Shown in pieces: positions 2,131 through 64,000 of a stretch of 64,000 nucleotides of DNA. The number at the start of each line of letters is the position of its first letter. The stretch's first letter is position 1. Source of the stretch: Takakia lepidozioides (Eukaryota > Plantae > Bryophyta); contig CM060734.1 of the NCBI GenBank assembly GCA_030704615.1, positions 28,024,001 through 28,088,000 of the forward strand, in the 5' to 3' direction. The notes beneath the pieces are model-generated. The model was not told the origin of the DNA, did no database searches, and saw only the letters and a program-made list of their open reading frames with translations. Both the position numbers and the translations under genes were made by a program.

Positions 2131-2299
2131 CAGGATGAGGATTCGGATGATTTTCAAGATTAATAGAATTTTAATGAAGTCTCTGTAAATGTAAATTCTC
2201 TTCCAGAGTGTATAAAGGAAATTATGCCCGACATTCGTGACCCCTCTCCAGTGTGCATTCCAGCCACACAATCGCCCAAACCACGACGCTCCCAAAATC

Positions 2300-8776: not shown

Positions 8777-8814
8777 ACCGTGAGGACACGGCTTTTTGAG
8801 AGGGGGAGGGATAA

Positions 8815-9656
8815 TGTTAGAGGGCTGTCTGGGACTTGGATAGTTTTACGGGTTCTGTGGGGTACCCTCAATTTTGCGCAGACTTACGGATGGTAGACTT
8901 AGACCAACACAGGCCTTAGGGGTGGTAGACAGGTTTACACAGTCAGTCACAGCCTTACACAGTTAGACACAGCTTGACACAGCCTGACACAGCTTGTCAC
9001 AGCCTTACACGGCCTATCACAGCCCGACACAGCCCGACACAGTCCGACACAGCCAGTCACAGCTCGGCATAGTCGCAGCCCGACACAGTTTGGCATAGCC
9101 CATCACAACATTCACAGGGAACGGTTATTATTGGCAGGGAATGACTGTGTGGGAACGACATCTGCAGAGGGAACATGCATTCTGTCTTGAATGACAGTTA
9201 GTTAGTTAGGCGGTTAGAAGAGCTTGCAGGTAGAATAGGTGGAGTAGCAACAGAGGGGGACACTTCTTGGATCACGACTTGGTCATCGGGGAGGGAAGGA
9301 CGATCTGGAGTAGGGGAATGAAGAGCGCAATGGGGGAGGAGACACGATCTGGTGATGCTTGATGAATGCAAGCTGTAGAGTTGTACTGTAGAACAGATTA
9401 GAGACACCATGGCTTCGGCCCGATATTTGATAGATATTAATCTGATACATACTTCATACTCACACTGTGTAGAGAGACCTGAGTGAAGCTATGGAATGAA
9501 TGGATGAGTGGATGGAACTTGGTAGGTTGCTAAAGCAATCTGATACTTAATTATAGACAATAAGGTAACTTGCTAACATGAATGCTTTATCTATGGGATT
9601 GGGAGTTCCCACTCTCGGATAGCGAGGCGTGGTGTTGAGTAAAAGCCCGCTCTACA
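8815..9656 (+). repeat. 3' LTR
   Basis: TG...CA ends, follows the PPT, similar to the LTRs at 12575 and 24204, contains a CACAGC-type repeat tract. Confidence 0.85.
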
Positions 9657-16879: not shown

Positions 16880-19700
16880 AATCACAGCTGATGAGCAGGT
16901 GAGAGAAGTGAATGTGGGAACTAAAGAGGAACCAAGGATGGTGAAGGTAGGAGCTGATTTGGAGCCAGAATTCTTTGAAGAAGCTAAGAGTTTGTTCATC
17001 AAATACAGAGATGTATTTGCTTGGAACTACGAGGATCTAAAAGGGATACCACCTGAAGATTGTCAGCATAAGATTGAACTGGAACCAGGATCAGTACCAA
17101 TCAAGCAGGCAAGGTACAGAATGAATCCCAACAGAAGGTTGGAAAAGAGATCAAGAAATTGGCTGAGGCTAAGTTTATACCCAATAGAGTATACAACTTG
17201 GTTGTCATCCTTGTGATAGTTCCCAGAAGAATGGTAAACTAAGAGTTTGTGTGAACTACAAGAAGCTGAATGCTTGTACGAAGAAAGATCCTTTCCATTT
17301 GCCATTCACAGAAGCAGTATTGGACACTGTGGCAGGCCATGAGAGGTACTCATTCATGGATGGCTTCAGTGGTTATAATCAAGTGCAAGTGGCTGAAGAA
17401 GACCAAGGAAAGATAGCTTTCATCACAGACTGGGGTGCTTATGCATACAAAGTCATGCCCTTTGGACTTTGTAATGCACCAGCAACCTTTCAGAGAGTGA
17501 TAAGTGAATATTTCATGAGTATCTGGATGATTTCATGCAGGTGTTCTTGGATGATTTCAATGTGTACAGAGATGAGCACTTGCATAAATTGGAGTTATGT
17601 CTGGCCAGATGCAGGATGAGAGGTCTGGGCCTGAATCCAGAGAAGTGTACTTTCTGTGTGAACTCAGGGGTGTTTCTGGGACACATTGTGTGTAAGAGGG
17701 GACTTCTTGTGGATCCCAAGAAAATAGAGGCCATTAAAGCCTCTCCACCACCAGTGAATGTTAAGAGTCTAAGGAGATTCCTTGGGCAAACCAGTTATAT
17801 AGAAGATTTGTCAGACGGTATGCACAGATAGCAGCACCATTGAGCAAACTTCTGAAGAAAGATGCAAAGATGCAGTGTTGCATGGAACCTGAATGTCAAC
17901 AGGCTTTTGAGGAACTTACATTGTCAGTAACAACTACACCTGTGCTAATTAATCCTCACTGGCAGGAAATATTTCATGTCATTGTGATGCTTCTGGAGAG
18001 CACTAGGAGCAGTGTTAGCCCAAAATGTTACAGGAAGGATAGATTCACCTGTGTACTATGCTAGCCGATTGATGAACAATGCCAAAAGAAATTATAGCAC
18101 AACGGAAAGAGAAGCATTGGCAATGATCTATGCAGTGAAGAAATTCAGGCATTACCTGTTGGGCAAGAAGTTTATGTTCTATGTGGATCACAGGCTCTGA
18201 TATACCTGGTAAACAAACCTCTGATAAGCGGAAGAAGAATAGCAAGATGGTGATAATCTTGCACGAGTTCAAGTTCGAGGTTGTTTACAAGCCTGGGAGG
18301 CTGCATCTTGTGGCGGATCACTTGTCACGGTTATCAACAGGAGAACCAGCCACGGGAGTAGATGATCAATTACCAGATGCGAGTCTATTTGCAGTGGAGG
18401 TGCAGGGAAGTGCAGATGACTGGTTAGATTGGCAGTGGCCAATCAGATACTACCTTGCTCATGGTCAGTGCCCACCAAGTTTGGAAAGGAGCAGAGAAAG
18501 AATTGTTATAAAAGGCTCTTACCTTACACTATGGTAGGGAGGAAGCAGAATGTATAGCTAGGACCAGATGGAGTGCTGAAGCGATGCTTATACCACCATG
18601 AAGTTAATAAAGTTTTGGAGGAAGTTCATAAAGGAGTGGCAGGAGGTCATTTTGGAGAGAGAGAGACTACCAGTAGGAAGATACTACATGCAGGTTACTG
18701 GTGGCCTACTTTGTTCAAGATGTACACAAGTATTGTCAGAGTTATGATGAATGTCAGAGGCTAGGACCTTTGCAGAGATATGGGAAGATGGCTTTGCATC
18801 CTACAATGCCTACGGAACCATTTCAGAAATGGGGACTAGACTTTGTTGGACCAATTAACCCACCAGCCAAGAATAACAGAACAGGTACATAATTACAGCC
18901 ACTGATTATACTACGAAGTGGGTGGAAGCTAAAGCTTTGAGGGACAACACAGCCAAGTCCACAGCAAGGTTCCTGTATGAGAACATACTTACACGATTTG
19001 GCTGTCCCTTGGAATTTATCAGTGATCAGGGAAGTCACTTCATTAATGAGACCATTGAATTATTGACTAAAGAGTTCGATTGTGCATAGGAAGAGTACAA
19101 CATATTACCCACAGGGTAATGGGCAGGCAGAGGCTACCAACAAAATACTATGTACTATCTTGGCTAAGATAGTCAATGCAAACAGAACGGATTGGGATAC
19201 AAAGCTGCTGACAGCTTTGTGGTCATACGGGACTTCATATAAAGTCATCACTAAGTATACACCATTCCAATTGGTTTATGGTATGGAAGCTTTACTTCCA
19301 GTGGAATTCCTGTTACCTACCATGAGAACGGAATGGGAAAGAGAATGGAATTGCAAGATTCAATTAAGGTCAGGAAACATGAATTATACCATGTGGAAGA
19401 AGTACGTGCTGATGCAGCTGATAACATGACCGGAATTCAGATGAAGAGAAAGGAACAGTTTGATGAAGGCAAGATAAAGACTTTTAAGACGGGAGATTTG
19501 ATTCTCTGGTTGCAGAAGAAGGGAAAGATTAAAGCTTCTAAGCTTAAATCACCATGGAAAGGACCTTATGTCATACAGAAAATGTATGACAACAACACCG
19601 CCATGTTACAAACCATTAACAAAGAGATGCTGGGAAGAGTCAATGCCAATAAGTTGAAGGGGTACAGTGGTATCCATGACAAACCATTGCAGCATGATTT
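16880..19700 (+). pseudogene. pol: pol: reverse transcriptase, RNase H, integrase (frameshifted)
   Basis: YKKLN...MDGFSGYNQ...MPFGLCNAPATFQR...FLDD; YASR..NYSTTEREAL; GGHFG; WGLDFVGP; SDQGSHF; PQGNGQAE; WKGPY. Confidence 0.93.
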
Positions 19701-26399: not shown

Positions 26400-29344
26400 G
26401 AACTAAGCCTGTGTTATTGTATTAGAAGAAGCCCCAGCCTGTAATTTCCTATGCATACACAGGAAAAGTGAAAGCTTTATATGCAATGGTGACTGTAGGA
26501 GACTTCCAGGTCTTAGGACAAGTAGACACAGGGGCAATGCTCTCTGTGATATCAGCAAGCACAGTGAGGGACCTTGGTCTGAGGATTGTGGAATCCCAGG
26601 TGAATCATAGACCCCTACACTTGTCATCGATGTCAACTAAAAACCTCAAAAGCGAGAGAGAAAGACATAAAACAAAATGAACCCTAATCACCAAAAGCAC
26701 CTTGAGCGATTGGGGAAGAGAACTGGCTTATCTTCTTTAGGCGGGCGACCGCGAATATGGTCGCCCATTGCCATTCGTAAACGGACGACCGCCACTTCCT
26801 GCGACTCGCAACCACCCATTATCTTCTTTAGACGGGCGACCATTTAGACAGTCGCCCATTGTCATGCTTAAAAACTTGGCGATGCCAACGGCTGTCGCCC
26901 GTTGTGAAGGTGAAGCTGGAACACGTTGTGAGGGTGATGCGTAGTTCTCATTCGCTGCGTACGCCTTTGTAAAGGTATGACCCGAAATCCGTTGCCCAGT
27001 ATTTTGTTTCGGTGGGCGATTGCTAAATCGGCCGCCCATGGCCGGTGCGATGCAAGCTCAAGACATGGAGTCAATCATCCTAAAATGGCGGAGGGTGAGG
27101 ATTCCACACTAACAGAGACCAACAGATCAACAGAGATTGGGGGCTATAGGGCACAAAGATTGTGTGTGTTTGAGGCACTATTATGCAAGAGGTATTTCAT
27201 ATTTTCGAAGACAACATCATGCCCTTGATGCGAGAATATCAGTTATCCATGGTTTCTGGATCGACAACTGTCTTAGTCTTGCCCCCGATACACTTCTCAT
27301 TTCAAGCCTTGCGTTTGACACTATAGATAGTTCAGATTTGTGCCCGAGGGGGTGTAGGAGGTAGTGTGCCGACGCAAAATGGTTGTAACTACCTTAGACA
27401 TCTATTGTGGGGGAGCTGATGAATTGTTTGTCTTTCATCGTGGTGAACACTGACACTTACCATATGCTTCTGGGATTAGACTTCTTGAAGAAGTTCGGGG
27501 CTGTGGTGGACACTGAGGCAGAAACAATTCGGATACGCTATGGACGTGGCCCATTTTCCCTTGCATACAATCAATCAGCTACAGTCAGTAAAAGAGGAGG
27601 TGGAAGGAGAAATGCAGGATTGTGATGACACATTCTGGACAGATCATGAAGATGGTACAAGTGGGGGGGTAATGACCCTGACATTGGCCCACCAACACTT
27701 GGAATTATGGGAGGAAGAGGAGGAAGTTGATGAGGACTTCATGGACTCCTCGGAGGATTTTATGGAGGAGAATGATTCTGAGCCTGACACTAAGGAAGAG
27801 ACCGAAGAGAAAGCACTTGAAATGGAGATATACTCTGACCTTAGTGACATGGAAGGGATCATAGATGAAGTGAACTCGGGAGCAGATCTGTTTGAGGACC
27901 AAGGCATGGTAGAACTTCTGCAGGAGGAAGCCTATCGCAACATGGCCTCAGCAATCATTCAAGACGCTTATCAGAAAGCTTGGAATGGGGAACTTGGCAA
28001 CAACAACGTAGAAATTGAAGATGATTTTCATGATTGGAGCCAGACAGTTCTTGCTGAGGAAAGAAGTAACTTGAGAACATATCTTCATAGTGTGGGAAGG
28101 GAACAGGAAGAGTTAAGCTTGGCAGAGCAAGAGGAGATGCGGTGGACAAGCCTCAGAACCAAGATAAGGTAAATCCAGACCTGTCAAGCCAACGAAAGGA
28201 TCAGTTGGAGGTGGAGCTGAGAGACCACCAGGATTGCTTTGCATAAAGTAAGGCAGACCTGCAATTCTGTCATCAGGTTGAACATGTCATAGACACCCAA
28301 GGATTCCCTCCTTGTCGCAGTCGTGCTAGCATATTATCAGAGTGGGAAGAAAATGAAGTGCAAAAACAAATACAAACGTTGATTTCCCAAGGCAAGATGA
28401 GGGAGAGCAAATCTGAATGGTCTTGCCCTGTCACACTACCACCAAAGAAGGACGGTTCAAAGAGGTTTTGTGGGGACTTCAGACCTGTCAACAGGCTCAC
28501 AAGGAGAGATTCTTATCCCATGCCACTAATCCAGGATGTGTTGAACCAATTAGGGAAGGCCACATGGTTTTCAGCGCTGGATTTATAGAGTGGGTTCTGG
28601 AAAATTAAGATGGACCCCAATGATGTGAGCAAAACCGCCGTGATCACCAAGAATGGCCTATTCAAGTGGCTGGTTATGCCATTTGGACTGAAAAATGCCA
28701 CAACGACCTTTCAAAGGGCCATGAATACGATCCTTGCTGAAGAGATTAGGGACTGCGCCAAGGTGTTTGTTGATGATGTCAACATCCATAGCCTTGACTG
28801 GGAATCCCACCTCAATCACATCAAATGGGTACTAAGGAAGCTGCGGGGGTCAAACCTACGTCTGAATCCAGACAAGTGCACCTTTGGCAATAAGGAACTT
28901 GTGTTCCTTGGGCATGTGGTTTCTGGAGAAGGGGTTAAGCCAGATCCAGATAAGGTGGCTGCCATCGAAAGGTTCCCTTTGCCAAAGAATCCCACAGCCG
29001 TAAAGGTATACCTGGGAATGACCAACTACTATAGGATCTATGTGAAGGGTTATGCAGGGGTTGTTGTCCCTCTATTTAATCTTACCAAGAAGGACCTGAA
29101 GTTTCACTGGGGGGCTGAGGCGCAGAATGCCTTTGAAGGTCTTCAAGTAAAACTCATCATTGCCCCCATTCTAGCTAGACCAGATTTCTCTAGGCCCTTC
29201 GTGCTAGATGTAGACTAGTCCATAAAAGGGGTAGGTGCTATTCTTTCTCAGAAGGAATACAAAAGGGAAAGAGTGATTGCGTACGCCAGCAAAGTGCTCT
29301 CGGAGGCTCAACGAAAGTATCACCCAATGGAAGGTGAGTGCTAT
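26400..29344 (+). pseudogene. pol: Ty3/Gypsy pol fragment: aspartic protease (interrupted), acidic spacer, RT, start of RNase H
   Basis: QVDTGAMLSVIS; LLGLDFL; FCGDFRPVN; MPFGLKNA; FVDDV; AYASK..YHPMEGECY, cut by CACTAC at 29345. Confidence 0.9.
26615..27366. mobile_element. Probable CACTA-type non-coding fragment within the protease
   Basis: Interrupts the protease frame, has GGCGA...TCGCC inverted motifs and ends in GTAGTG; left end not resolved. Confidence 0.35.
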
Positions 29345-37149: not shown

Positions 37150-38700
37150 GTTCAACATGCGGAAATGAGGTTTCAGATTTCCGTCCGGAGTGATTCTTTC
37201 GATTGCTGCTGACGGAAATACGGAGCCGCATTTCCGTATTGCGTCTTGGCAGAGCGACGGAAATGCGGCACCGAATTTCCGTCCGGGGGAAACCTTACAC
37301 TCTCCAGACGGAAATGCGGTAACGCATTCCATCCAGCAAGCACGGTATGTGAAGTGGAACGGAAATGCGGTACCGCATTTCCGTTCTGATTGAGAATCAT
37401 GAACAAAGGGAAAGAAATGCGGCCCGCATTTCCGTCCGAGTCGCACGACATTCCATAACGGAAATGCGGCGCCGCGTCCGAGTCGCTTTTCCGACATTCC
37501 AGAACGGAAATGCGGCACGCATTTCCGCTGAGACCTTCAAACTCTCCAGAACGGAAATGCGGTACTGCATTTCCGTTCTGATTGAGAATTATGAACAACG
37601 GGAATAGAAATGCGGCACCGCATTTCCGTCCGAGTGGCACTTTCCGACATTCCAGAACGGAAATGCGGCGCCGCATTTCCGTTTTGTATCTGATGCATGG
37701 AGCCGAGTGCAATTCCGATCGCTGAGACAGCGCAATTCCGACCGCTTCAGACGACTATCCAGAACGGAAATGAGGTACGCATTTCCGTCTGACTGTAAAT
37801 CAACCATCGGACTGAAATGCGGCACACATTTCCATCCAGTCGCAAACAAGCTGAAACGGAAATGCGGCACCGCATTTCCGTTGATGAGAATTTGAGAATG
37901 GAATCCGTTGAATCGTGAAATTCGGAACTGAAATGTGTACAGCATTTCCGTCGGAGTCGCACCTTCGACATTCAAAACGGAAATACGGCGCCGCATTTCC
38001 GTTTTGTATGTGAGGCTAGAGCTTTGGAACGAAAATGCGGCACCGCATTTCCGGTCAGACTTAATACTGACAAAACGGAAATTTTCGTTCTGACTGAAAT
38101 CGTCAGCAGAACAGGCGATCGCACTTCCGACATTCTAGAACGGAAATGCGGCGCCGCATTTTCCGTTTTGTATATGAGGCCTGAGCTGTGGACGGAAATT
38201 CGATGCCGCATTTCCCATGTGAGACCTTCAAACTTTCCAGAGACCGGAAATGCGGCACCGCATTTCCTCTATACTTTCCGAACGGAAATGTGGCACGGCA
38301 TTTCCGTTCATCAACGAAGGTATGTGAAGGGGGAACGGAAATGCGGTACCGCATTTCCGTTCAGATTGAAAATCATGAACCACGGGAACTGAAATGCTGT
38401 GCCGCATTTCCGTCCGGATCGCACGTTTCGACATTCCAGAACGGAAATGCGGCGCCGCATTTCCCTTTTGTATCTCATACATGGAGCTGTGGGACGGAAA
38501 TGCGGCACCGTATTTCCGTTCAACAACTAAGGTATGTGAAGGTGGAACGGAAATGCGGTGCCGCATTTTCTTCCAACAAGCACGGATGTGTAGCTTCGTG
38601 ATGGTACTTAACGGAAATGCGGCGCCGCATTCGCATTTCAACTCCAACTCCAAATTTGAACACGTGGAGCAACGGAATTGCGGCACATGTCTGCACTCTA
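37150..38700. repeat. Dense array of the 22-bp palindrome (roughly 25-30 copies, ~50 bp spacing)
   Basis: Read directly, e.g. 37361 GGAAATGCGGTACCGCATTTCC and 37659 GGAAATGCGGCGCCGCATTTCC. Confidence 0.95.
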
Positions 38701-44083: not shown

Positions 44084-44235
44084 TGTGATTTTCAAGATTA
44101 ATACAATTTTAATGACTCTCTGTACATTTAATTCAATTCCAGAGTATATAAATGGAATTCTCCCCGTCCTTCATGTCCCCTCTCCATGTGCTTCTAAACG
44201 ACAACATCGTCCAAACCTGGTCCCTCCCAAAATCA

Positions 44236-45290
44236 GAAATGCGGCACCGCATTTCAATGTCTGAACGGAAATGTGGCAACAGCAAAAACCTCATTTGGAA
44301 ATGCGCACCGCATTTCCAAAACCGAAGCAGAACAAATTTCCGATTCATGTTTGGACATCAGAAACTGTTCGGACAAACGGAAATGCGGAAATGCGTGCCG
44401 CATTTCCGTTTCCGACACGGCACTTTTTTGCCGATTGGCAGCTCCTTCCATGGATGTAAATCGAAATGCGGAGGTCGAACATGGAAATCGGTGCCACATT
44501 AACCTTTTGGAGATGGACATTTTTTCCAACTGCAGACCCATCGACGTTCTTGGGCTCCCCAATTCCATGATGCTAGACGGGAATGCAACACCGCATTCCA
44601 TTGTCCAATAAGAAATTTCGATGACGTACATGGAAATGCGGCGCCGCATTTCCAAAGGGACATCGTTGTTTGCCCAATTCCAGACCCTTTGATGGAAATG
44701 CGGCACCGCATTCCATCGTCCTATAAAAACTTACATTGTCCTATAAAAACTTTCAATTGCCCAAAATGGGAAATGCGGCGCCGCATTTCCAAAACAGACA
44801 TCGTTGTTTGTCCAATTCCAGACCCGTTGGGCATTCCGTCTTGATGTGACGGAAATACGGCACCGCATTCCATTGTCCGATTCGATATTTTGATGATAGA
44901 CATGGAAATGCGGTGCCGCATTTCCAGAACGGACATCGTTGTTTGTCCAATTCCAGACCCTTCGACGGAAATGCGGCACCGCATTCCAGTGTGCTCTCCG
45001 GAAATGCTGTGCCGCATTTCATTGTCCGGTACGAAATTTCGATGACAGACATGGAAATGCGGTGCCGCATTTCAAGTATGGACATGGACAAGCATTAGCG
45101 ACTGGACATGCTTGGATAGTTCAAGGTCGAATATGGAATGCGGCGCCGCATTTCAAATTCGAAGTATGGTAATGCCATGTTAGGAAATGAAATGTTGTAC
45201 AACATTTCCGTTACGAACAACGGAGGAAAGGGAGCTGCCAGAAATCGCTTCATGGAGAAAATGGAATGCGGTGGCGAATTTCCGAGCTTC
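44236..45290. repeat. Second array of the same palindrome (~15-20 copies)
   Basis: e.g. 44632, 44769, 44904, 45053. Confidence 0.92.
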
Positions 45291-48890: not shown

Positions 48891-49892
48891 GATACGAACA
48901 AATGACATAGGGGACATATTAATTTAATGTGTCATTGCAACCATACACTTCATTATAAGCGAATGCAAACAACATCCTTCAATGTGTGTGTGCATCAAAT
49001 ATGTCATTCAATAATTACATGTATGTGCGCACGTACACGCATGCAAAGTTTCAAACCCAATCATTTGCCCCCCCCAATGACGCATTCACCCTATCAACCA
49101 ATTTTTGTTTATTAATGGGAAAGAAAATCTCTCATGCCATTGCACCCAACAAACGGATGTGGCTCAACTCCATTTTTTCCTACATGTGCTTAAATATGTG
49201 TGCAAACAACCTGTACAAAAATAAATTAATTAAATTTAAAAAAAATCTCCCAAACGACGCACTCACCCTTGCACCCTTTTGAATTAAAACGAATTTAAAT
49301 GATTTAAAATAAATATTTGCATTAGAATTATATGATTGCGGTTTTTGAGGGGCGTAATGATTTTATTTTAGCTCTATTTTGATTTGGTGACATTGGCTTT
49401 GCACCACTACATCCATGAAAAAATGGGACAAAAAAAAATGGAAAAAAATAAGTGTGTTTCTAGGTCACTTTTGCATAACCTCTATGAAGAATGCATGAAG
49501 TTGAGATAATTCACTTTGGAGTGCAAATGAGAGAACAAAATCTGGTTATGGGTCCAAATGACTTTTGTTTACACTCCAATTTTTTGCAAGCACATTGCAT
49601 ATGCTATCATTAAGCATATGGCTTGAAATGGATAAAAAAAAAAAATCGTCGCAGGCGAAACACAATTTTCCGTCTCTATGACATGTAGCAGCTCTGCGTT
49701 CAACACTAGAATGACCCATTGAATCAACTTGGTTCAAGCTCAGTATTGGTCCACATGTGCATAGGTATGTTTAGATCACATATGCAAAGTTGCAACCCCC
49801 ACGAGCAACAAGAAATGTTTTTACAATCAATCGATTGAATCGGATGTATACAAAGTAGAATATCTACAATGCCCATCTACGCGATCCCTGTC

Positions 49893-50765
49893 TCAAAGGA
49901 ACCTATTTCTATCATACAACATCCCACTCACGTTGTAATCGGAGGTCATCATCCCGGAGAACTCGTATGATGCAAATAGTTCGCTGCCAGCCCTAATAGT
50001 TCTACTAGCACATGTCATCACAAACATGTGCATCCCCTCACAGTATACTGACGTATGACCACAAAAGCTCTCATGCGCATCGCTTCGCTCGTCCATACTA
50101 CATTGATTTTCCTAGGATGACCAAAATAACTATTGACCAGCCAGCAACATTGCCGAAGATGTCGGGGTCACACCATCACAAATCTGATCTCAATGGGAGA
50201 CAACCCCCGTCTACGTACATCCTGTCCGTTGACACACAAAATGTAGGGTAGGATGTATGGGGCTTCGAGGCGTAATGTACGGAACTCTCCGCGGAGGTGT
50301 AGTATGGACCGTAGTAGGGAACAAGTCCACCATGCTGTTTCTCCGAAGAGGAACCACAATATCATTGACTGTGAATAAACCCCGACCCATAGCAGGGTCC
50401 CTTAAGCGGCTCTCACAACATATACCGTCCCCCCAATACTCGAACTCCACATTTTCTCGCGGGATGGGTTGGTAGGGTCGAGATGATTCCCCCAACAACG
50501 AGGCTTACGGTCCTCAGTAACATAGTCCTATCCGCTTCCCATCGGGGGCGAGGATCCGGCTCAGGCCGCCCAAGCCGAGTGGGAGGAACCCTAGGGCGAA
50601 GCCGACCCCTCAAGGGGTTCGGAGGCACATGCACGTGGAGTGGAGGTGGAGGTGTGGTGGTGGTGGAGGTGGAGGTGGTACTGCTGGTGGAGGAGATAAA
50701 GTGGAGGTGGTTGAGGATGTAATGTTGGAGGTGCAGCCAGGGGTACAACGTCCGGATAGGCAAGA

Positions 50766-50796
<31 letters not shown>

Positions 50797-51200
50797 GGTG
50801 GAGGTGGCCTGCTCGTCGCCGCCCATAACCCTATGACCCTATGATCACCTGATACCCCTCGACCCTACGCATGTCATCTACTGCTGTGGGGGACCAACTG
50901 GTCACATCGGGCACATGCTCTGGCACAAATTCTGGCAGTAGACCCGCGCGAAATGCCTCCTATGCAATGTGATTGAGAGCTTGGGCATCAAGTCGTGGCT
51001 GCATGTGCGTAGTGAACAACGCATCAATACATATGTCGTAATTTTGATTCATGTATGCTTACCAATCATACTATATTATTAGATAAACCTAAATGTACCT
51101 TAAATGAATGTTAATGAGAGGGGTGGGAAAAACACTCACCTTTGCCGCATCCGCAATCAGGTTTGGGCCTCATGGAGGCGGATATGGAGCCCTGTCCTTT
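49893..51200 (-). pseudogene. SET-domain protein with Pro-rich N-terminal region (frameshifted)
   Basis: MGRGLFTVNDI (~50390); DPDIFGNVAG(W)VNS..HP..NV (~50105-50170, across a 1-nt shift); ASRTIRAGSELFASY (~49965-50010). Confidence 0.65.
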
Positions 51201-51821
51201 CTTAGATACAGACATCTCTGGGAGGATCAGAGCAGGCTCGGGGCATGATATGGCGTGAGTTGGCCATTAGACTACAGCCGGATCATCCTATGGATGGCTC
51301 AGTGATGCGAGCCAAGGCCATTGTGACAGATGCGGTCTCTTACGATGTCCTCGTTGGTGGGGCAGTGTTATATCCCATGGGCTTCACCCTGGATTTTTGG
51401 GAGGAGTCAGCATCCTACAGGCCTGGATGGCACTCAGGGGATGGTCGTCGTGTACAACTCCCTGTGACATTCATTGGGGGTGTTGCTGCTGCCCAGCGGA
51501 GCAAGATGCCAACACTAGCAGCCTTTACAACTGCAGTTAGTTGGCCTGGAGAGTTGCTGGAGCAGGCCAATGCCCATGCAGAGGAATGTGCACCTCTTAT
51601 AAGCAGGATGACATCATGGTACAGCGGAGTTGTCCGCCATGGTTGCTCACACTCCATTGTGGGGTACGAGCAAGGATTTGCAGCAGGCTGCTGATAGACA
51701 GATGCAACAAGCCTGGGTAGAGGCCTTCGTACCGTCAGGAGAGGAGGAGAGTGCGGTGAATGCACCAGGACCCCCTTAGTTGTTGCCATTGGACACCACA
51801 CCTCTTGTGTGGCAGTGCCTG

Positions 51822-52800
51822 GATGAAGGCATATGCCTTCTGGACTTGTTTGGCGGGATCAACATTGGATTGGCTGCAGTGCTGTAGGTAGGTGTACGAG
51901 TTTGACGTTACCTATATGTGGAGAGGGATGAGACTGCACGACGCATCTCACTGCGCCATGTTGCTTAGTTGGTGCAGCAGTACCCTGATTTGTTGCCAGT
52001 GTCTGCAGTTCGTGGATACCAACAAGCCTTGCCAGCAGACATCTCATTGCTGGGGGCGCATGATTTGGAGCGGGTTGGCCCTATTCACTTAGTAGTGGCA
52101 GGTTGGCCCTGCCAAGGGCTTTCATCAGCTGGGTATGGCAATGGGTTACAAGACTCAAGGTCACGCCTGTTTTGGGAGATGTTGAGGGTCCTGCGCTATT
52201 TACAGCTTCAGCAGACAGACTCTGCGGCATATATCTTGGAGAATGTGCCATTGATGGGTGATTCTCGGGCCAAGGTGATGGCCAGTGTACATCAAGTGCG
52301 GTCTTGGCTTGGGTCAGCAGTGTTGCTAGATGCAGCTGCAGTGGGGTCATGGGCTCATCGCCCACGACTATGGTGGACCAACTTGATGCCACCTGCATTG
52401 CTCAAGCGTGCATTTGATGGGGTGCAGCGGCCACCAAACCTGACGGTGGATAACATTTTGGACATAGGAAGGCAGTCTTAGCGTGTGAGACATGATGACC
52501 GATCACCTTTGGCAGTGGTCAATAAGGTGGGTCACCCACGAGTCGCATTGCCTACACTACTCAGTTTTCTAGGATCCCATGCTTTTCGGGATGGTGGACC
52601 TGGCCTCTTGTGGGATAGCCAGTTGCACCAATTAGTGGAGCCCAATGCTGACGAGCGCGAGCGGGCGATGGGTTTTACCACTGGTACCACGGCGGTGCCA
52701 TCTATTTCTGAGGCATCACGTCGTCAGGTGTTGGGGCAAGCAATGGATCTCAATTGCTTGATCTGGATTATCAGCTTGGCTATGGCTGAGCAGCGCCGAG
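51822..52800 (+). pseudogene. C5-cytosine DNA methyltransferase domain (DNMT3/bacterial-like) within pol
   Basis: Motif I LLDLFGGI, II YVERD, IV VAGWPCQGLS, VI ILENV, VIII HRPRLWWTN, IX-X ERERAMGF...RRQVLGQAM; a few TAG/TGA stops. Confidence 0.9.
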
Positions 52801-53047
52801 TACGGAGTACACTTCCCTTGATGGTCTCCCTGCCTACCGAGACGGTACAAGCAGCGAGTGGGGGCGAACAGGTGAGGACCACGAGGTGCAGGCCGTATCC
52901 ATGGCACACGTGGGAGGTGTTCGAGGTTCAAAAGGAGTTGGCAGCCAAGGCGGCCGTGATGGATGAGGTTGGGGATTTTTCTCGGGTTGAGGAGGTCCTC
53001 AAGGATGGGATGATGGGGCAGGAGAAAGACGACGTATACGGCGGTTC

Positions 53048-55800
53048 TTGAGGGCTTATAGGAACTGTTTTGCCTTCAGTTTGAAGGACTTGGGAGCACT
53101 GAAGGGTCAAGAGATTCGCATTGAATTGGCCACTGACACGCCAATCTTTCGGAGACCCTATAGATACAGTGACATGGAGAGGTCCTTGATTCAGATGAGG
53201 ACTCAGGACCTCTGGGAGGCTGGTTTGGTGGAGCTATCTGGTGGAGAGTATGCTTCAGCCATAGTGATGCCAGCCAAGAAGGATGTCTATGGCAATTGGA
53301 TGGAGAGACGTATGTGCGGTGATTACCGGCCTGTAAATCGTTAGACCAAGTCCGATAGGTATGCCATGCCGACACCAGAGGAGATCTTTGATGCCATTGG
53401 GCATGCCAAGGTCTTTAGCACTTTGGATTTACGATCCGGATATCACCAGTTGCCGATCAAGGAGGTGGATAAGCAGAAGACGGCATTCTGGGGGATCAAT
53501 GAGCACGGGAAGGATTGCCTATACCAGTGGCGGTTCTTACCATTTGGGCTTAAGAACGCTCCTGCAGAGTTTCAGAGAGTCATGGACAGGATTCTAGCAG
53601 GGGTGGAGTTTGCTTGGTGCTACATAGATGACATCATCATCTTTAGTGCTACCTTGGAGGAGCATGAGAGACACCTTCAGGTGGTATTTGAGCGCTTGAG
53701 GGCACACGAACTGAAGTTACATCCGAGGAAGTGCAAGTTTTTCCACAACCAGATTGAGTATCTGGGTCACATGATATATCCTGGAGGATTGGGGGTACAG
53801 CAGACTAAGGTAGAGGCCATTGCACAGATTCCACGCCCCACGGATGTGAGCCAAGTTCGAGCTTTCATGGGGTTGGCAAACTATTATAGACGATTTGTCA
53901 AGGGATTTAGTGCCATTGCAAAGGCTCTAACCAAGCTGACCAAGGTGGACCAGGAGTGGCAGTGGGAAGATGAGCAAGAACAAGCTTTCCAAGAGCTCAA
54001 GGCGAGGTTGACCTCGGCGCCCATCTTGAGACGACTTATCAGGGGGCGTCATTTTCAGCTGCATACAGATTAGAGCATGTTGGGGCTTGGAGCGGTGCTC
54101 ACACAGGTGGATGATGAGGGAAGAGAGTTCATAGTGGCTTATGCCAGTCGCTTGAACAACGCTGCAGAGGCTAAGTATAGCTCATATGAGGGAGAGTGCT
54201 TAGCTGCAGTGTGGGTCGTGGCACACTTCAGGTGCTATCTATATGATAATCTCTTCACCCTTGTCACGGATCACCAGCCACTCAAGTGGTTGATGGAGTC
54301 AGACAAGCTTACAGGGAAGCTTGCACGGTGGGCACTCATACTTCAAGAGTATGACTTTCAGGTTGTGCATCGACCGGGTTTGGTCAATCGGGATGCGGAT
54401 GGGTTGAGTCGCAATCCATGCACGAGCCAGTAGGATCACATTGGAGCTCGGTGGCATCGTGAGACGGACAAGGAGATGGTGCCCGGATGGCATGCATCTG
54501 CATTTCTGTGTATCTTGGCAGCAGAAGGTCAGGTTGGACCTACAACAGGGATGACTGTAGACCGAGTGTCTGAGGACCCTGAGGCCAGCAATGAGCAAGG
54601 TGGCGCCAAAGATATACATGAGGATTCAGCTGTGTTGGACTATCTCTGCACTGGGGGCACACCTGCTCCGAGTGTGGGAAGATGGTCGAGTGAGGATTGT
54701 GCCTCACCCAACCCAACGGGCACAGTTAGTGCGGCATGCCCATGAGGAGTTGGGGCATTTTGGGGTGCGACGCACTCATAGTCTACTGCAGGGGCAGTAT
54801 TGGTGGCGTGGTATGCACACAGAGGTGCAATAATTTGTGGTTAGGTGCATGGTGTGTGACAGGGTGCGTTCTTCATTCAACGCCCCTACTCCACAATTGC
54901 ACCCTCTTCCGATCATGGGATTGGGCTACAGGTGGAGTCTTGACTTCGCAGGGCCGTTGCCACTGACCATGCGCCACAACAAGTACGTGTTGGTGATGGT
55001 GGAGCACTTCTCCAAGTGGATCGAGTTGGTTCCATTGCCTGATAAGGCTAGTGAGGGAGCTGCGTATGCATTCTTGGATTGTGTACTTAGCCGATTCGGT
55101 GCTCCAGCTGAGGTATTCACGGACCAAGGGAGAGAGTTCTTGGGGGAGTTTCAGGCGTTGTGTGACAAGGCCTTGGTAGACCACCGCACCACTTCTCGGG
55201 ATCATCCTGAGGCCGATGGCTTGGCAGAGAGGGTTGTTCAGACAGTGAAGAGGGGTTTGCGCAAGTATGGCTTGCAGAAGGGACACCTAGGAGATTGGGA
55301 CCTTCATTTAGCTTGGTTAGCCATGGGCTACAGGTTCAGCAAGCAAGCATCACTTGCCTCCTTCTCACCATACTTTCTTCTCTTTGGCCGAGAGCCGGAT
55401 TTGCCTGCATCCATTCGTAGAGAAGCTGCTACAGTTCTCAACCTTGACGATCCGGATATGTGGGCACGTGCATGTGATCAGCGTGCAAAGTTGTTCAAGA
55501 AAGTCATGCCCATGGCTTTCGAGAACATTGTCATTGCACAACATCGTGATACGTTGAGGTATGCTACCATACGTGGTGGGGGCTATTGTCTTGGGGTTCG
55601 GAGATTTAACCCTGGTGACTATGTTTATCTGCAGCAGACTGCTCCTACGACCTTGGATGTGACTGCAGGACGTACTATTTTGAGGGTTCGAGAGGTGTTG
55701 CCCTCAGGAGTCCTGATCTTGGAGGGTCGGGATGGCATGATTTGGAAGGACCATGTGCGTAATTACACGCCATGTCACCTTTCAAATGTTGATGGAAGGG
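53048..55800 (+). pseudogene. pol: RT, RNase H and integrase
   Basis: MCGDYRPVN; LDLRSGYHQ; PFGLKNAPAEFQR; YIDD; YSSYEGECLA; TDHQPL; HEELGH..CMVC; LDFAGP; TDQGREF; GLAER. Confidence 0.95.
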
Positions 55801-55838
55801 TTGACCCAAACCTGGCAGTGGTACCTGCAAGTTTGAGG

Positions 55839-55976
55839 TGCATGTTGTGTGGGTCTGCTAGAGGGGCCATGCTGGTGTGTGATCAAAGCTCTAGAGGTTA
55901 GCATATGGGATGCTTGACTCCACCTCTTGAGATGGTTCCTGATAGGGATTGGTTATGTTTGCATTGCATTGGATAG
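55839..55976 (+). other. PHD finger at the integrase C-terminus (degenerate)
   Basis: CMLC...MLVCDQS.RG*HMGCLTPPLEMVPDRDWLCLHC (C4HC3 pattern, one Cys lost, one stop). Confidence 0.85.
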
Positions 55977-56233
55977 TGGGAGTGGATACAACCATGGAAG
56001 GCTAACAAGAAATGCAAGGCCAAGCTACTAGGAGACCAACACACGAGATCCTGACTCAAGTTCACAGATTGTAAGACGGCGACTAACGATGGGGTTGCTC
56101 TTGTACCCGGCCTCTTGGTCTATAGAGTTTGAATACAATAGGGACAGTGATAGAGGACTTAGTACGGCTGTGGCTATTACATCTTGTAGCTATCTGGAGT
56201 TAGAGGGACCTAACCACCAGCTAGGGGGGCGAT

Positions 56234-56774
56234 TGTGGTAGACTACTTTATTGTGCATATATGTGTGGTGTGGTTTGGACAACGATGTAGTTGTGTAACG
56301 ATATGTATGTGCACAATAGCTGTCAAGTTAAATAAACACAGTGAGAAACTAACAAGAATAAATCTAGTTATTTATATTTAACACTTGGAATTAGTTCAAG
56401 TGTTAAGTCAGGTGTCAAGTTTAGCTTGACACCTGAACCATCTTATCTTCACGAGCTCGTCAGTCGTGCGGCTCATCTCTCTCGAGTTGAGTCTGCACGA
56501 CCGAGCTCCTTCACTGCTTAGAATCTGAGTGTGCTTATGAAGGGAGAATAGGATGTTGTGGGGGTGGAGTCCCCATAGCTTGGGGTGCCCCTAGCTCGAC
56601 TCTTAGTTTAACGAGTGATGGTGTTGCATTTCGTTTTTCGGTGTCAACAGTGTGATTTTAGTTTCCTATCTATTGTGACAGACTACTTTATTGTGCATAC
56701 ATGTGTGGTGTGGTTTGGACAGCGATGTAGTTGTGTAGCGATACGTATGCGCACGACAACTTTCATCTATAACA
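56234..56774 (+). repeat. Putative 3' LTR with ~80-bp internal direct repeat
   Basis: TGTGGTAG...CTATAACA; 56240-56316 is repeated at 56680-56756. Confidence 0.55.
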
Positions 56775-56789
56775 GAGGAGTCACCAAAG

Positions 56790-57245
56790 AATGAGGAATT
56801 ACCTCCATAGGGGTTATGACACTGGCATCATATCTATAATTTTTCCATCCATGCCGGATGAAAAATACCAGGATTTGAATTCGTTTTATTCCCCCTTTAT
56901 GCTTTTTTTTTCCGTACTGGATGAGGCTTTCTCTTAAGGGATGACGAATTACCTGTTAGGATGAAAAACCGTTGCCTTGGATGATGTATACTACTTTTTC
57001 ATCCTGCTGATGGACCTCATCCAAATAAATGAACCTATTTATTTTTTCATCTGGACCGGATGAAAAAAGCAACTTATGATGGCCATGGAGATTTTTTAAA
57101 TTACCCTTAATTATTGCTAATTAAGGAGTGAAACCCTAACTCCTACCCTATAATCTACTGTTTAAACCTAGCTAACGGATGACATCCGTCGGGTTTTTAA
57201 GAGAAAGGATATTGATTATTCATCCTCCGGATGAAAAATCGGGCT
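56790..57245. repeat. Dispersed GGATGAAAAA/TTTTCATCC motifs, probable DNA-transposon subterminal region
   Basis: About 10 motif copies in both orientations in AT-rich DNA, upstream of the second Mutator-like transposase. Confidence 0.5.
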
Positions 57246-57739
57246 CTGCCCTAGGGTGTCTCTCCCGCTGTCAGCTGCATTCCTCGTGCTGCTGAGCTCG
57301 CGAGTTATGGCGTCTGAGCTCTGCTGCTACCCTGTCTGTTGCTTCATGCCAGACGAGCTCCTGGGGATGCGCAATGGCGGCGTCTTGTCTCTTCTCACAG
57401 GCGGGAGAACCCGCTGTGATGAGATCGTCCCTTTCCCTCCTCTGGCTTTTATGTTTCGCAGCGGCGCTTTGGTGGGGAAGTATATCGCTCCCTCTCCCTT
57501 CTTAGACCTAGCATTTGCATGCTTCGCTTCTCCTTTGCTGTGCTGGAGGTGGCGTGTTGGTGGCGATGGCGCAGTGTTACCTTCCCCAATCGCTCAAAGT
57601 GCTTTTGGCAATTAGGGTTCCTTGTTGCTTAAATAAAGCAATGGCGAAGGTGATGGTCGGCACCGATCATCACTTTTGCCTTGATACATATTCTTTCCTG
57701 CCTCGCTGACTTCCTGAATCTGCTGAAATAAGACACCAA

Positions 57740-58258
57740 CTACAGTCTTCTGTAAAGCGATGATCGGTGGCGATCATCGCTTTTCCCACATCGGGGGACT
57801 ATCAGTAAAGAGGGAGAAGTGCGTTTGAGAGAACTTACGGATCCCTTCGCCTTCTTTGGCTTCGTGGCTGCATCGCTCGGATCGTCCTCTGCAGCTTTCC
57901 TCTTCCCTTTTTCATCGGTCTGAACATAAGAAAAAACAATGTATTGATCCCACATGGAATGGAAAACATCAAGACTAATGATAACAGTATTATGCGGATA
58001 TTGAATGATCACCATTTCTGTCTGATGTAGGGTTTGCTGACTTCCTCCCGGTATGGCGTCCACTACTCCTTCTTCTGTTGTGTTGTCTTCGTGCATGAAC
58101 TCGGCTGACACTGTTTGGTTACCTACGCTCACTGCTCCAGCCGTCGCTGCGACTGCGGCGACCTCACTCTCACTTCCTACATGCTCTTCTGCTTGATCTG
58201 TCTCCAAGTTCACATGTTGCCTAAGTGCTGCACCATCTTGCATGCGACGCCTCGTCAT
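57740..58258 (-). other. Possible small low-complexity gene (acidic, then KGKRK/PKKAK basic), with likely intron ~57921-58010
   Basis: Open frame with plausible composition and splice sites; no recognised domain. Confidence 0.3.
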
Positions 58259-59107: not shown

Positions 59108-62063
59108 ATGGCTTCCTCCGAAGCAGAGTTTTATTCTGACGACAAACCAGTGCCTTTCTCCAAAGAAGCACTTGACAATGGATTCGCGATTGTGACGGAA
59201 CATGTCCTGGCTACCCGGTTTGAACTTTTGAATGGGTCCATCTTCTTGGAGAAAGAGGTGTACGATTTCGACGGGAAGTTGTTGAAATACTCTTTTCAAA
59301 ATCGTGATGAGACGGCTCATGTGAGCCAGTGGAGAGTGCGCCCTGGTAGATACAGAGTACTTGGAGAGCCTCGGAGAAAGTCCCTTGGATCATATGTGAC
59401 GCCTGGGACTGTTGCTTCAGTCGTTGAAGACAAAAAAGAGGTAGTGGTGAAAAAAAAAGAAACGTGCTCAACTCCAATCGTTGAGCTTTCGGATTCGTCC
59501 GATGATGACGTTAGTGAAATTCCAACTCCAGTCCTTTGTACTGTAGTTGTGGAAGCAGATGAAGAAGACATTTGTAGTGTCATTCCAAAACTACGGGCGA
59601 AGGAATGGTAGGTTTCAAAAGTGAGTTGCGGGGAATTGATTGGGAAGCTTTGAAGTAGGTGCTTGCGAAGTTCCTGCCAGAGACTTTTGATGGGGATATC
59701 CTGCCTCCTCCTCCGTGAGTTGGAGGTATAACAAGCCTGATGCACGGAATGGACAAGAAACACGACGGGCACCCATGGTGCAGAACAAAAACATCCAATA
59801 TTCAAAATGAGGACAAGCTTGTTTTCATGAGAAACAGTTTGCAATGGACACCTTAGGTGTGATAATTTGAATTGCAGACACTTTCTTCAGTCTGGGGTTC
59901 ACAATCAAAGCGAGTGGGAGGGTCTCGCGGAAAATCCATTTAAGCCTGGGACTGCTCCTCCAGCGGAAACCACTTTCGTTTGCAAATTCTGCAAACTAGT
60001 ACCAACCTGCCTGGTGCTGTGTGGAGCAAGAATGTACTATGTTGTCCACCATTTGAAAACCATGACAAGAGCTTGTGTGCATTTTGGTTTCCATAATTGC
60101 AGTTTGTGACATGCAATCCGAGGATACGGAATCCTAGAAGCTCATGTGGAATTCCCTTGTACGTGTTATGGGCTGCCATGGGGTGCCATCTCCAAATTTC
60201 GCTGGTTTTATGGCAGATAGTGCTCAGGCAAATTTCAATGCAGTTCGAATTGTCTTCGGATCAGGCGACCCAAAAGTGCCAATGTCGGGAAGAGAGCGTA
60301 CATGTCTATTCCATTGGACACAATCTTTGGAGAAACATACAAAATCGGACATCAAACCAAAGATGCAGACACAGCACCGTAAATTGTGCAAAGAGTACAA
60401 AGATGCTAGAACAATGAAGGAGGCGGACACTTTGTTCTAGACAATTCGTGCTTGGTGGTTCTCTTCTGGAGTTGCATCGCTTGAGAGTATGAGAGCATTG
60501 GAAGATTGGCCGGCGTTTTGGCACTTCTGGTACAAACAGTGGGGAGCAGCCATGACAATGGTGCGAGGCTTGTATTGCTAGTTTTATTCATACATTTACT
60601 TTCCAAATTTTGCTCTCTTTACTTTCTTTATGTTGTTCCCTGTGCACTGTTCTGAAGTGTGGTTCTGCTCTTTGCAGAACATGTCCATTGAGGAAATGGC
60701 GGACATGCCATCTTGCAATTTGGCAGAGACTGTGCACAATGCATGGTTGCAACAGTCTGGGAAACGAGGTCGGGATTTGTATGTGGCAACAACAGATGAT
60801 CTGATACGTGCCTTGCAACAACAAACCAGATACCGTGATTTCTTGCGAGGAGGGGCTGGTGGCAAGGGTCCGGACAAACAGGAGTTGATGTTGCGTGCTG
60901 CAAACAGATCTAGGGATCCAAGCAAGATAGCATGGGCGGTGAGCATGTATGCCCAGGGAACGCCACTTGTTTCTAGAGTTCCACATCTTGAAGGGGAGGA
61001 GAGATTCGGCTCATGTAAGAGGAAATTGAACACCCCACCTGGTTCGGATTCCGATTCGCACAGGGCAGACCGTGATAACTTCTCGAAGCCTCGTGTTCCC
61101 CTGCATGGCAGATCCATGTTCGGAACCTCCATTCTGGAGGAACCTCCGACTTGACGGCATGCTCCAGCATCTAACAGTGCCACTGAAATGGTGCAGGAGA
61201 GAAACTACCCCCTTGATGTGCTGGAGTCCGCATGCCCCGACCACGTTTGGCACATAGAACGCACAAGTGCAGGGTCTCGTGTGAAATGTACAGCGATCAG
61301 GGCAACTAATTTCAAGAAGTGCACTTCATCTATATCCAGAGGCGGTGCCCAGACTCCTGCTCCGACTTTCACGGGTTTGATGCGTCCATACGGCCAACCA
61401 GAAGCAAAGAACCACAAGTTATGGTTCTGCGCAGATGATTGTGGTAGATGTGTGCATGGAACTGTGCGTCCTTCCGTGGTGATGAAGCCAGCTCCTCCAA
61501 CCGTTTGGCCAGTCAAGGTGGGAACACATCTCACAAGTCAGGAGATTGCAATGCTGGAGGAGGCAGGCTTTTCCCTTGCGAGACAACCCCTACTGCATAC
61601 ATGTGTTTCTACTTCTGCGTCCTCTCGGGTCCCCCCGACAAATCCTCACTTGTGGCCAACCAAACGAGATGGAAAGCTGGTTCGGCATTTCTTTCCAACC
61701 GCTGAACACTTCGGCAAAGTGGAGTCCGCAAGAATGCTCCAAGTTCGTGTTGCAAGCACCACGGAAGTGCCCGATCCAGGATATGGTCGGGTGTACACAA
61801 TGATCACTTCGACATCTGCTGTTCATGACAGGGCATACGACATCACGGTTTTCAATTTTCCCAATTGCACATGTCCTGATTTTGTGAATATGCTATCAAC
61901 CAGTTTAGGCAAGAGAGGTAAATTCATACCCTGCAAACATTTGTATTTCGTATTTTTTAAGAGGATGGTTTGCGATCCCAAACGTGACAACTTCGTTCAC
62001 CAGGCCACTCTGAGTTTCAACGAGGTCGATACTCTATTGCAGCGGGATACAACACATAGGTAG
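59108..62063 (+). pseudogene. Second, divergent Mutator-like transposase with SWIM finger; internal deletion and stops
   Basis: MDKKHDGHPWC; FMADSAQANF; CLFHW; CNLAETVH; SWIM CTCPDF...CKHLYFVF; intron ~60561-60678; clear homology to 33192-36650. Confidence 0.82.
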
Positions 62064-62069
62064 CATCAA

Positions 62070-63600
62070 CTATGCCATGTGGTATATGGACGATCATGCT
62101 ATAAAATGTGCAATTTGCAACATTGTCATGGAAATTCAATTCAAATCAATTCGTTTGCAACATCGTCGGCGGTGCAATGATACTCGTTTCCTCACCAAAG
62201 ATGCCTTGAGAGCATGTCGAATTGTTGGTGCCAGTGCTATGAGTTGGGCAAATGTAATGTTTGCCTGAATGTGGCACAAGCCTTCCATTAGATTATATGA
62301 CTCCAACTCGTCGGTGAAGCGCATGGTGGAATGCATTCTCCTTTTGGGAAGCTTCTCAGGTGCTACCGGTCGATGGGTCGGACTCTTTGCTCTAGATGTC
62401 AAAGGTGGCCGGGAAATGGTTGGCCGGACTGCCGAAGATTCGGTCTCTGCAAATCTTCTCCTTGGGATGGATATCCTCTTCCTCCCTGAGTACAGTTTCC
62501 GCCACCTTCCGTGCGTCTGACTTCATGACTTTAAAGTTCAGATCCTCCTGTTCCGATGCCACATACCCAGGGCCTTTCCCTAGTGTATCTCGTTGCTGTC
62601 GGGTCATTACTGCATAGCTACCTTCCTCGGGGCTAGCTTGCGTAGTTTGAGTGGCGCCGAGCTCACTTGCAATCCAATTTACTTGGTGCTGCGTCTCCTA
62701 TTGACGGGACGAATGACCTGGATGTACGTTGGTCTGCTGCTGGGGTGGCGCTGAAGTGGACGCCTCCCTGCACCCTTACATCCCGAGGGGGAGACCACGT
62801 ATTAGAAGAACCTTGGGCTATCTGAGCCGCAGGATTTGAATAGGTCGCTCGGGAATTCTGTCCCGTAGCTGCATTGCCTCCAGAATATGATGGGCCTGCC
62901 TGATCTGCCCTAGGCCGTTGCGCTATCTGCGTTGGAGTAGCAAAATACATGCTATGATGTTGTGGTAGATGGTTGGGTGGTTCAGTGGTATACTGATTCG
63001 GGAAGGGTGCTCGCTGCCCTTCCAAATTCCTCTCTGTTTGTTGAATGGTGGTTGGCGTAGGCTAGTCCACTTGTCTATGAGGACATTTGTCCAAGGGGTG
63101 ACCTCGTTGGCCGCAATGCAAACACACAATATCACTCCAACAATTTTCAGTTGGGTGAGTGGTTCTTCCGCATTTTTGACAACCTCTCCGGGATTGATTG
63201 AATTGCCTTTTTGGCCTATCTTGATAAGTTGGGTTCCGGCTTACCTGCCTCTCCCGAGTGGGATAAGGACAGTGTTGAGACGCATGTCCCGAGTTGTTGC
63301 AATTGGAACACCATACCTTGGTCAGGTTGGGGCCGGACTCTCCAACTGGAGCCGCATCTTGATACCCCACATAGCTGGTAATCTGCTGACCAATGGAGCT
63401 CATGCGGTCGCCCATTGTTTCAATGGTCTTGATGAGAGAAGTGACTTGTGCCTCTAGATGGCCCACTCGCAAATCGGACTGCCCGCTTGAATGTGCCTGT
63501 GAGTTGGTAGGAACAGCATTCGTGTATTGCGGCACCGTTGGCGCTACTACTGGTGTTGGGGACGTTGCTAGGGCATAGGGTCTCGCGGAGGGAAAGAGCC
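62070..63600 (-). pseudogene. gag: Ty3/Gypsy gag fragment with three CCHC knuckles
   Basis: CSNCNNSGHASQHC, CQKCGRTTHPTENC, CLHCGQRGHPLDKC; AVMTRQQ; ANITFAQLIALAP. Confidence 0.8.
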
Positions 63601-64000
63601 AGCTGGTAGTCCAACTCCATCCCCCAGCATGGAAATTCGGCGCTGAATCTCCATCCTAGGGGGTTGGATGAAAAGTTCTCAGGGGGAGAGAAAGCCAGCT
63701 AGCGGCTCAACTCCATCCCCCAGCATGGAAATTCGGCGCCGAATTTCCATCCTAGGCGGTGGGATAAAAAGTTCTTGGGGGGGACAGAGCTAGCTGGCGG
63801 CTCAACTTCATCCCCCAAATATAAATTTGGCGCCGAATTTCCATACGGGCGGGTGGATGAAAGCTTGTCAAGGGGAGAGAAAGCCAGTAGGGAGCCCAAC
63901 TTCATTCCCTTGGATGGAAATTCGGCGCCTAATTTCCATCCTAGGTGGTTGGATGAAAAGTTAGCGGGGGGAGAGAGAGCCAACTTGCGGCTCAACTCCA
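63600..64000. repeat. ~95-bp tandem repeat centred on palindrome GGAAATTCGGCGCCGAATTTCC (runs off the window end)
   Basis: Units centred at ~63631, 63727, 63823, 63916. Confidence 0.85.

Follow-up and report, generated by a model that had tools for sequence, protein, structure and literature searches.

The window, by which we mean the whole 64,000-nucleotide stretch of Takakia lepidozioides DNA analyzed here, holds the dead remnant of a Gypsy-type retrotransposon in which a cytosine-5 DNA methyltransferase (DNMT) domain lies between the protease and the reverse transcriptase (RT). Comparison with relatives indicates that this DNMT is stably carried by one Gypsy lineage, from liverworts and mosses to chlorophytes. 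We predict, with a probability of about one in two, that the enzyme is packaged in the particle, where its target is newly made cDNA of the element itself. Features lie on the plus strand unless stated otherwise, and published work is cited as far as its text was accessible.

Organization and decay of the window copy

The C5 cytosine DNMT3-type domain spans 51828..52790 in one frame without an intron and matches Pfam DNA_methylase (E 2e-11). Its motifs lie at 51843 (I), 51921 (II), 52101-52118 (IV, PCQ), 52239 (VI, ENV), 52356 (VIII), 52653 (IX), and 52731 (X). This canonical linear order from I to X, with the catalytic Cys present, fits the PF00145 motif set, and the motifs and the Pfam match bear out the initial annotation, which had described a full, intronless motif series with an intact catalytic Cys. 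It had not noted that this copy is dead, as is evident from four in-frame stops within the domain (51885, 51903, 51966, and 52479), truncation at the 5' end, further stops, and gaps. The CpG observed/expected ratio is 0.50 within the DNMT and 0.63 across the window, a depletion that does not separate methylation by the element from methylation by the host.

Upstream, the C-terminal remnant of an aspartic protease (51160..51586) was detected by tblastn with Marchantia and other relatives. Its catalytic motif is missing and its frame changes near 51206-51222. The copy is cut at approximately 51158, inside the protease, and gag is absent; 29 contigs of run X1 continue with other letters before 51158, leaving loose ends. 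Downstream of the DNMT, the tail of the first reading frame (52791..53023) was recognized by homology to ORF1 tails. Compared to contigs of runs X6 and X9, approximately 160 nt are missing from the window at 53019-53023, and the native ORF1/ORF2 junction is therefore absent. The X6 joint at this gap replaces one letter by 162, while X9 gives pieces; the phase differs by contig: X9 would add 160 letters and X6 would add 161, one of them in phase and the other out of phase.

The second frame comprises a Gypsy-type RT (53057..53776; Pfam RVT_1, E 1.4e-32; stop at 53342), an RNase H (53963..54430; RT_RNaseH, E 2.3e-31; stops at 54071 and 54431), and a DDE integrase with a zinc-binding domain (54669..55560, core 54927-55208; rve, E 3.9e-13; Integrase_H2C2, E 9.4e-06). 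Pfam, tblastn, and the RT tree agree on the Gypsy order of these three domains. A DIRS or tyrosine-recombinase element was ruled out by the rve and Integrase_H2C2 matches, which denote a DDE integrase and not a tyrosine recombinase. The RT-integrase frame ends in a PHD finger (55818..55973; stop at 55899) with 67% identity over 52 amino acids to the PHD finger of a Calypogeia relative, itself a Pfam PHD match (E 7e-09); the 27-amino acid window piece alone gave no Pfam match. The initial annotation had placed the DNMT inside pol and colinear with it. Its order and its position between protease and RT stand, whereas a continuous pol does not: the DNMT and RT frames differ in the window, and the DNMT of relatives comes last in frame one.

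At 79 places in 51780-53260 the majority of the X1 depth disagrees with the window. The window has T or A where X1 has C or G at 46 of these places, and the reverse applies at 15. Such an excess of C/G to T/A changes is expected from the decay of methylated DNA.

The 3' end shows a repeat plan of the B-A-B type. A purine-rich tract (56223..56233) directly precedes terminal repeat B (56234..56325; 92 nt with TG...CA ends), followed by segment A (56326..56673; 348 nt, examined by blastn and within the coverage by element contigs) and by a second terminal repeat, B' (56674..56765), identical to B at 81 of 92 nt. B' is likely the 3' end of the element. The tract is likely a plus-strand primer site, to judge from its position and its recurrence in loci L004 and L023; the plan tract-B-A-B is also found in L004, and L023 has a similar tract and B. 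Within the window, blastn revealed no second copy of segment A, the 5' end of the element being lost. In a chlorophyte-type relative (L004, 9030-9909; L005, 571-1460), the end likewise consists of purine tract-B-A-B; its segment A runs into the internal region, and no obvious tRNA primer site was seen there by eye. Priming may be independent of tRNA. As a separate observation, five identical letters flank B' (56669-56673 and 56766-56770; chance approximately 1e-3), which resembles a target duplication around B' alone.

Copies of the element

The element family is multi-copy, with many divergent copies in the contig runs. In run X1, 54,898 contigs fell on 49500-58000, with a likeness spread over 80-100%. 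Their depth is high only from approximately 51200 to 56883, beyond which it drops from >2e5 to 2e4; contig depth in these runs is not equivalent to copy number. At three of the four window stops, 92-99% of the X1 and X2 depth disagrees with the window; the 40 differences listed, out of 156, do not include the fourth. A 5,009-nt contig from a second organism covers the element from the DNMT through the PHD finger at approximately 90-95%.

The X1 depth amounts to 0.46-0.54 million in the DNMT bins and to 0.93-1.2 million in RT and integrase. This halving may reflect divergence or derivatives that lack the DNMT, between which contig depth cannot discriminate. Contigs of run X9, taken as RNA only by guess, cover parts of the element without 52056-52623.

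Enzyme type and conservation

The enzyme was typed with the open relative P0007. A phmmer search against the PDB returned DNMT3A as the best match (6e-12) and DNMT3B/3C next, with DRM-type enzymes lower (1e-8 to 2e-4) and bacterial enzymes no better than 3.5e-4. The predicted structure of P0007 (pLDDT 88.7, pTM 0.90) matched DNMT3A/3B best in a fold search (E 4e-19, TM 0.84 by target), and all 34 fold matches listed were DNMT3. An Atlas search with P0007 placed a Streptophyta-dominated DNMT cluster first (0.96) with two phage clusters at an equal score, and thus leaves the origins unranked. Taken from the sequence and the modeled fold of P0007, the element enzyme is a C5 methyltransferase of the DNMT3 type. 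A host plant DNMT3 was rejected as its identity: no DUF3444 was found in the window or in 12 relatives or pieces scanned, and retroelement domains flank the DNMT. Similarly, a DRM was rejected on account of motifs that run linearly from I to X and are not rearranged.

Among the 116 stored relatives, which include cluster members and are not independent rows, the catalytic Cys is present in 103 of the 107 that cover the site, the remaining four being gaps. The Glu of ENV is kept in 108 of 109, and the motif VIII Arg pair in 102 and 103 of 107, respectively. Between the window and the Sphagnum-subclade locus L001, DNMT comparison gave a pN of 0.28 and a pS of 0.72, hence a dN/dS of approximately 0.15, a rough value because pS is near saturation. 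Four other DNMT pairs gave 0.15-0.27 and one was saturated. These ratios indicate that purifying selection has kept the DNMT in the lineage. Glu or Ser replaces the Pro before the catalytic Cys in 20 stored proteins of the algal type, including P0056-P0063, P0065-P0070, and P0182.

These data bear on whether the domain acts on DNA at all. It might bind or modify the RNA of the element, or serve in the particle as a non-catalytic binder of nucleic acid; the Pro replacement in algal-type relatives would suit such a role, as would the related KnitGypsy-Dnmt3 protein of Klebsormidium nitens, which showed no DNA activity in yeast (PMC5890265). We consider this distinctly unlikely, given the near invariance of the Cys, ENV, and motif VIII and given that the nearest solved relatives are the DNA enzymes DNMT3A/3B, with DNMT2 far lower.

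Relatives and phylogeny

Protein searches yielded 38 and 52 relatives. Named organisms among them are Marchantia polymorpha, Calypogeia fissa, two Sphagnum species, and Haematococcus lacustris, so that the extension to land plants foreseen in the initial annotation is borne out by named matches in Marchantia, Calypogeia, and Sphagnum. No named relative from ferns, lycophytes, or seed plants was retrieved, which is weak evidence, as annotated proteomes often mask transposons. A search of viral contigs gave 53 pattern matches, none of which was confirmed. The order protease-DNMT-RT is common to the window and its Marchantia, Calypogeia, and Sphagnum relatives. Identity to the window amounts to 69-73% for the full-length DNMT domains of Marchantia and Calypogeia, against 62-77% for the RT.

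A quick DNMT tree with 77 rows places the window in a 28-row clade with a support of 100, which holds all Marchantia, Calypogeia, and Sphagnum rows; the window branches outside each of their subclades, and a second tree agrees. A 121-row tree of RT-RNase H, from which 21 sequences were left out as too short and for which a 41-row IQ-TREE run served as a check, contains an 89-row clade (support 100) with every row that bears a DNMT or a PHD finger. This clade includes Klebsormidium nitens, Closterium, Coleochaete, and Haematococcus. Neither domain is seen in the remaining 32 RT rows (Solanum, Ulmus, Tanacetum, Chara, ants, and others). The trees cover the element sequences, without host DNMT3 or DRM and without the K. 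nitens DNMT, and both give the window the same neighbors. Judged by the two trees alone, the host is likely a land plant and, with better than even odds, a bryophyte. A relation of the window element to the Klebsormidium-type retrotransposon DNMTs is supported. In the RT tree, K. nitens P0108 belongs to the clade at a support of 100; this protein shows no DNMT.

Two domain orders occur. The DNMT precedes the RT in the window, liverworts, Sphagnum, and Closterium, while the order RT-RNase H-DNMT-integrase-PHD is found in Haematococcus lacustris, L002-L012, and P0060-P0072. The second order fits 11 of 22 metagenome loci, one of which (L005) is a single frame of 3329 codons. Ten of the 22 (L013-L022) matched DNMTs only weakly, showed no retroelement domains, and were excluded; of these, L019 alone was included in a tree. 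The trees conflict or do not decide on whether the order with the DNMT after RNase H is nested in the pre-RT order or sister to it.

That a host DNMT3 retrocopy was captured only once, or that the DNMT is a chance neighbor without a role in the element, is extremely improbable and largely refuted. The window DNMT is a pseudogene, as such a capture might be, and in 64 of the 89 RT-clade rows no DNMT is seen within the predicted protein; most of these, including both K. nitens proteins, are RT-frame products that are unable to show an upstream frame. The remaining 25 carry it. Moreover, the position is shared in Marchantia, Calypogeia, Sphagnum, Closterium, and further relatives, the DNMT and RT trees concur on the neighbors of the window, selection has acted on the domain, and 12 relatives or pieces are free of the DUF3444 of host DNMT3 (PMC6453930). 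The single insertion that the initial annotation had weighed against its own proposal thus fails, as the DNMT recurs across the RT lineage, both in copies and in relatives.

Frame junction and predicted readthrough

Two loci span the junction between the DNMT frame and the RT, and both have an in-frame TAG there. Locus L023 looks intact and is 50% (DNMT) and 69% (RT) identical to the window. Its Gag-protease-DNMT frame ends in TAG, followed by CAATCA, and the RT frame continues in phase as a second frame of 1047 codons with RT, RNase H, integrase, and PHD finger. The locus (1-9285) is a circular contig in a genome titled uncultured cyanobacterium, likely a eukaryotic contamination. In L001, which is decayed, TAG CAACCC follows 79 codons past the DNMT with the RT in phase, matching five of the six CARYYA letters. 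A stop followed by CARYYA is the readthrough consensus in plants and tobacco mosaic virus (PMC5397192, PMC2194720), and its chance occurrence after a given stop is 0.0012.

Proteins of the window clade are compatible with this arrangement: ten end 74-82 amino acids past the DNMT and two at 58. The rest stop earlier or are gene models in which DNMT and RT are fused across a shortened junction, likely owing to predicted introns. Deeper relatives such as P0056 and P0057 have a single ORF. From the two loci, we predict that RT and integrase are likely made via readthrough of the TAG. The differing phases that the X9 and X6 contigs imply across the deleted junction of the window speak against it; as described for Tca2, an in-frame stop can also be bypassed by other means (PMC2194720, PMC5397192). 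Because the DNMT ends the Gag-protease frame before a TAG with CARYYA or nearly so, it is likely made at the level of Gag.

Proposed role of the DNMT

In the mechanism that we favor, most ribosomes would stop after Gag-protease-DNMT, and occasional readthrough of the TAG would add RT-integrase-PHD. Synthesis at the Gag level would thus load many DNMT copies into each particle. The protease would free the DNMT, which would methylate cytosines, likely at CG, on the cDNA before or during integration. New insertions would arrive marked like host repeat DNA, and histone marks would guide integration via the PHD finger. Other retrotransposon DNMT3 domains perform de novo CG methylation in yeast, and the cDNA hypothesis has been raised for them as well (PMC5890265). 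With the Klebsormidium domain, yeast DNA stayed unmethylated, a result that its authors call inconclusive (PMC5890265).

Alternatively, the enzyme might act on chromosomal DNA, at the insertion site or on older copies, and so damp the activity of its own family; it would then travel with the integration complex or be free in the nucleus. The same conservation and dN/dS data agree with this, as does the PHD finger on the integrase, and effects on insertion-site chromatin and a benefit to the host have been discussed (PMC5890265). The placement of the DNMT on the Gag-containing frame favors loading into particles instead, and we regard a chromosomal target as somewhat unlikely. The chlorophyte-type order RNase H-DNMT-integrase fits cDNA and chromosomal targets alike. 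Returning to methylation of the cDNA, the complete scheme would be an old Gypsy clade of green plants with an active DNMT3 in two positions, tRNA-free B-A-B replication, DNMT loading at the Gag level by readthrough in land plants, and pre-methylated insertions; this combination is advanced tentatively, as a possibility short of even odds.

Comparison with known systems

As the initial annotation had stated, retrotransposon-borne DNMTs have been reported before, in Symbiodinium and Klebsormidium (PMC5890265). The closest known system is KnitGypsy-Dnmt3 of Klebsormidium nitens (de Mendoza et al., 2018; PMC5890265). Shared features are a Gypsy set with integrase, an intronless and unrearranged Dnmt3-type DNMT under purifying selection, a 3' end with DIRS-like B-A-B repeats, and the presence of two K. 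nitens RTs in the RT clade of the window. The repeat plan of KnitGypsy-Dnmt3 is A-coding-B-A-B, whereas the window retains B-A-B at the 3' end and has lost the 5' end. Furthermore, a single ORF of KnitGypsy-Dnmt3 encodes DNMT, RT, and RNase H, while in the two relatives that span the junction the DNMT ends the Gag-protease frame before an in-frame stop, although readthrough would still join the two. As the shared ORF is absent from these loci, we classify the window element as a close variant and not as a strict member. Its relatives extend the hosts to liverworts, peat moss, Closterium, Coleochaete (RT frame only), and, with the second order, the chlorophyte Haematococcus.

SymbioDIRS-Dnmt3 of Symbiodinium likewise has a Dnmt3-type domain on a retrotransposon polyprotein and split repeats, but combines them with a tyrosine recombinase and a DIRS RT instead of a DDE integrase and a Gypsy RT. 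Its de novo CG methylation was observed in yeast (PMC5890265); the function of the present enzyme is predicted from sequence. EpiLTRs (bioRxiv 10.64898/2026.05.21.726589) likewise combine an LTR element with a cytosine methyltransferase and a domain that reads chromatin. In their case the DNMT groups as sister to DNMT4 and is accompanied by an adenine methyltransferase and a chromodomain, in contrast to DNMT3 and PHD in the window type. Tobacco mosaic virus, Tca2, SIRE1, and MuLV share an in-frame stop between frames (PMC2194720, PMC5397192); the stop seen here follows protease and DNMT, not gag alone, does not precede env, and in L023 has the form TAG-CARYYA. Among host enzymes, PpDNMT3a/b have a DNMT3-type catalytic domain but carry DUF3444, and DRM motifs are rearranged, unlike the linear order of the window type (PMC6453930).

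The 2018 survey included Physcomitrella and Selaginella and, in its accessible text, not Marchantia (PMC5890265). The accessible text of later papers of that group refers to "streptophytes", and that of the EpiLTR preprint (10.64898/2026.05.21.726589) to "streptophytes (Gypsy-DNMT3)", in both cases with no land plant named. Further papers (10.1101/363937, PMC11982613, PMC11244446, PMC9940879, PMC6673714, 10.1101/2023.01.30.526367) bear on the element, in their accessible parts, solely through PHD fingers in algal Gypsy elements. The kind of element is already known (PMC5890265), and its range into land plants and chlorophytes appears new: no Gypsy-DNMT3 of a land plant or chlorophyte was found in the literature outside the supplements of the 2018 main paper, PMC12344493, and the 2026 preprint, which may hold one.

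Why a transposon carries a silencing enzyme has been a question since 2018, when a single alga, whose domain could not be demonstrated to be active, was the plant-side example. That relatives extend from chlorophytes to land plants speaks against a capture specific to Klebsormidium. As Marchantia is a genetic model with methylation mutants and has relatives with intact-looking frames, the question becomes testable, and the likely readthrough junction predicts DNMT in amounts similar to those of Gag. As a caution, DNMT gene counts in bryophytes include transposon copies.

Other features of the window

Among 82 frames scanned with Pfam, no host gene was found in the window; 72 of these frames gave retroelement or weak matches only. 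Degenerate 10-nt and 53-nt repeat arrays and a duplicated element spaced by 15 kb occur at 4758-24998, 37357-38547, and 44198-45094. Two more decayed Gypsy elements are located at 17242-19300 and 28217-29341, neither with a DNMT match beside it. Frames with a SWIM zinc finger (60582-62063) probably represent a decayed DNA transposon, an Atlas search with the SWIM frame yielding no informative taxon, and a gag-like zinc knuckle on the minus strand (63062-63655) adjoins them.
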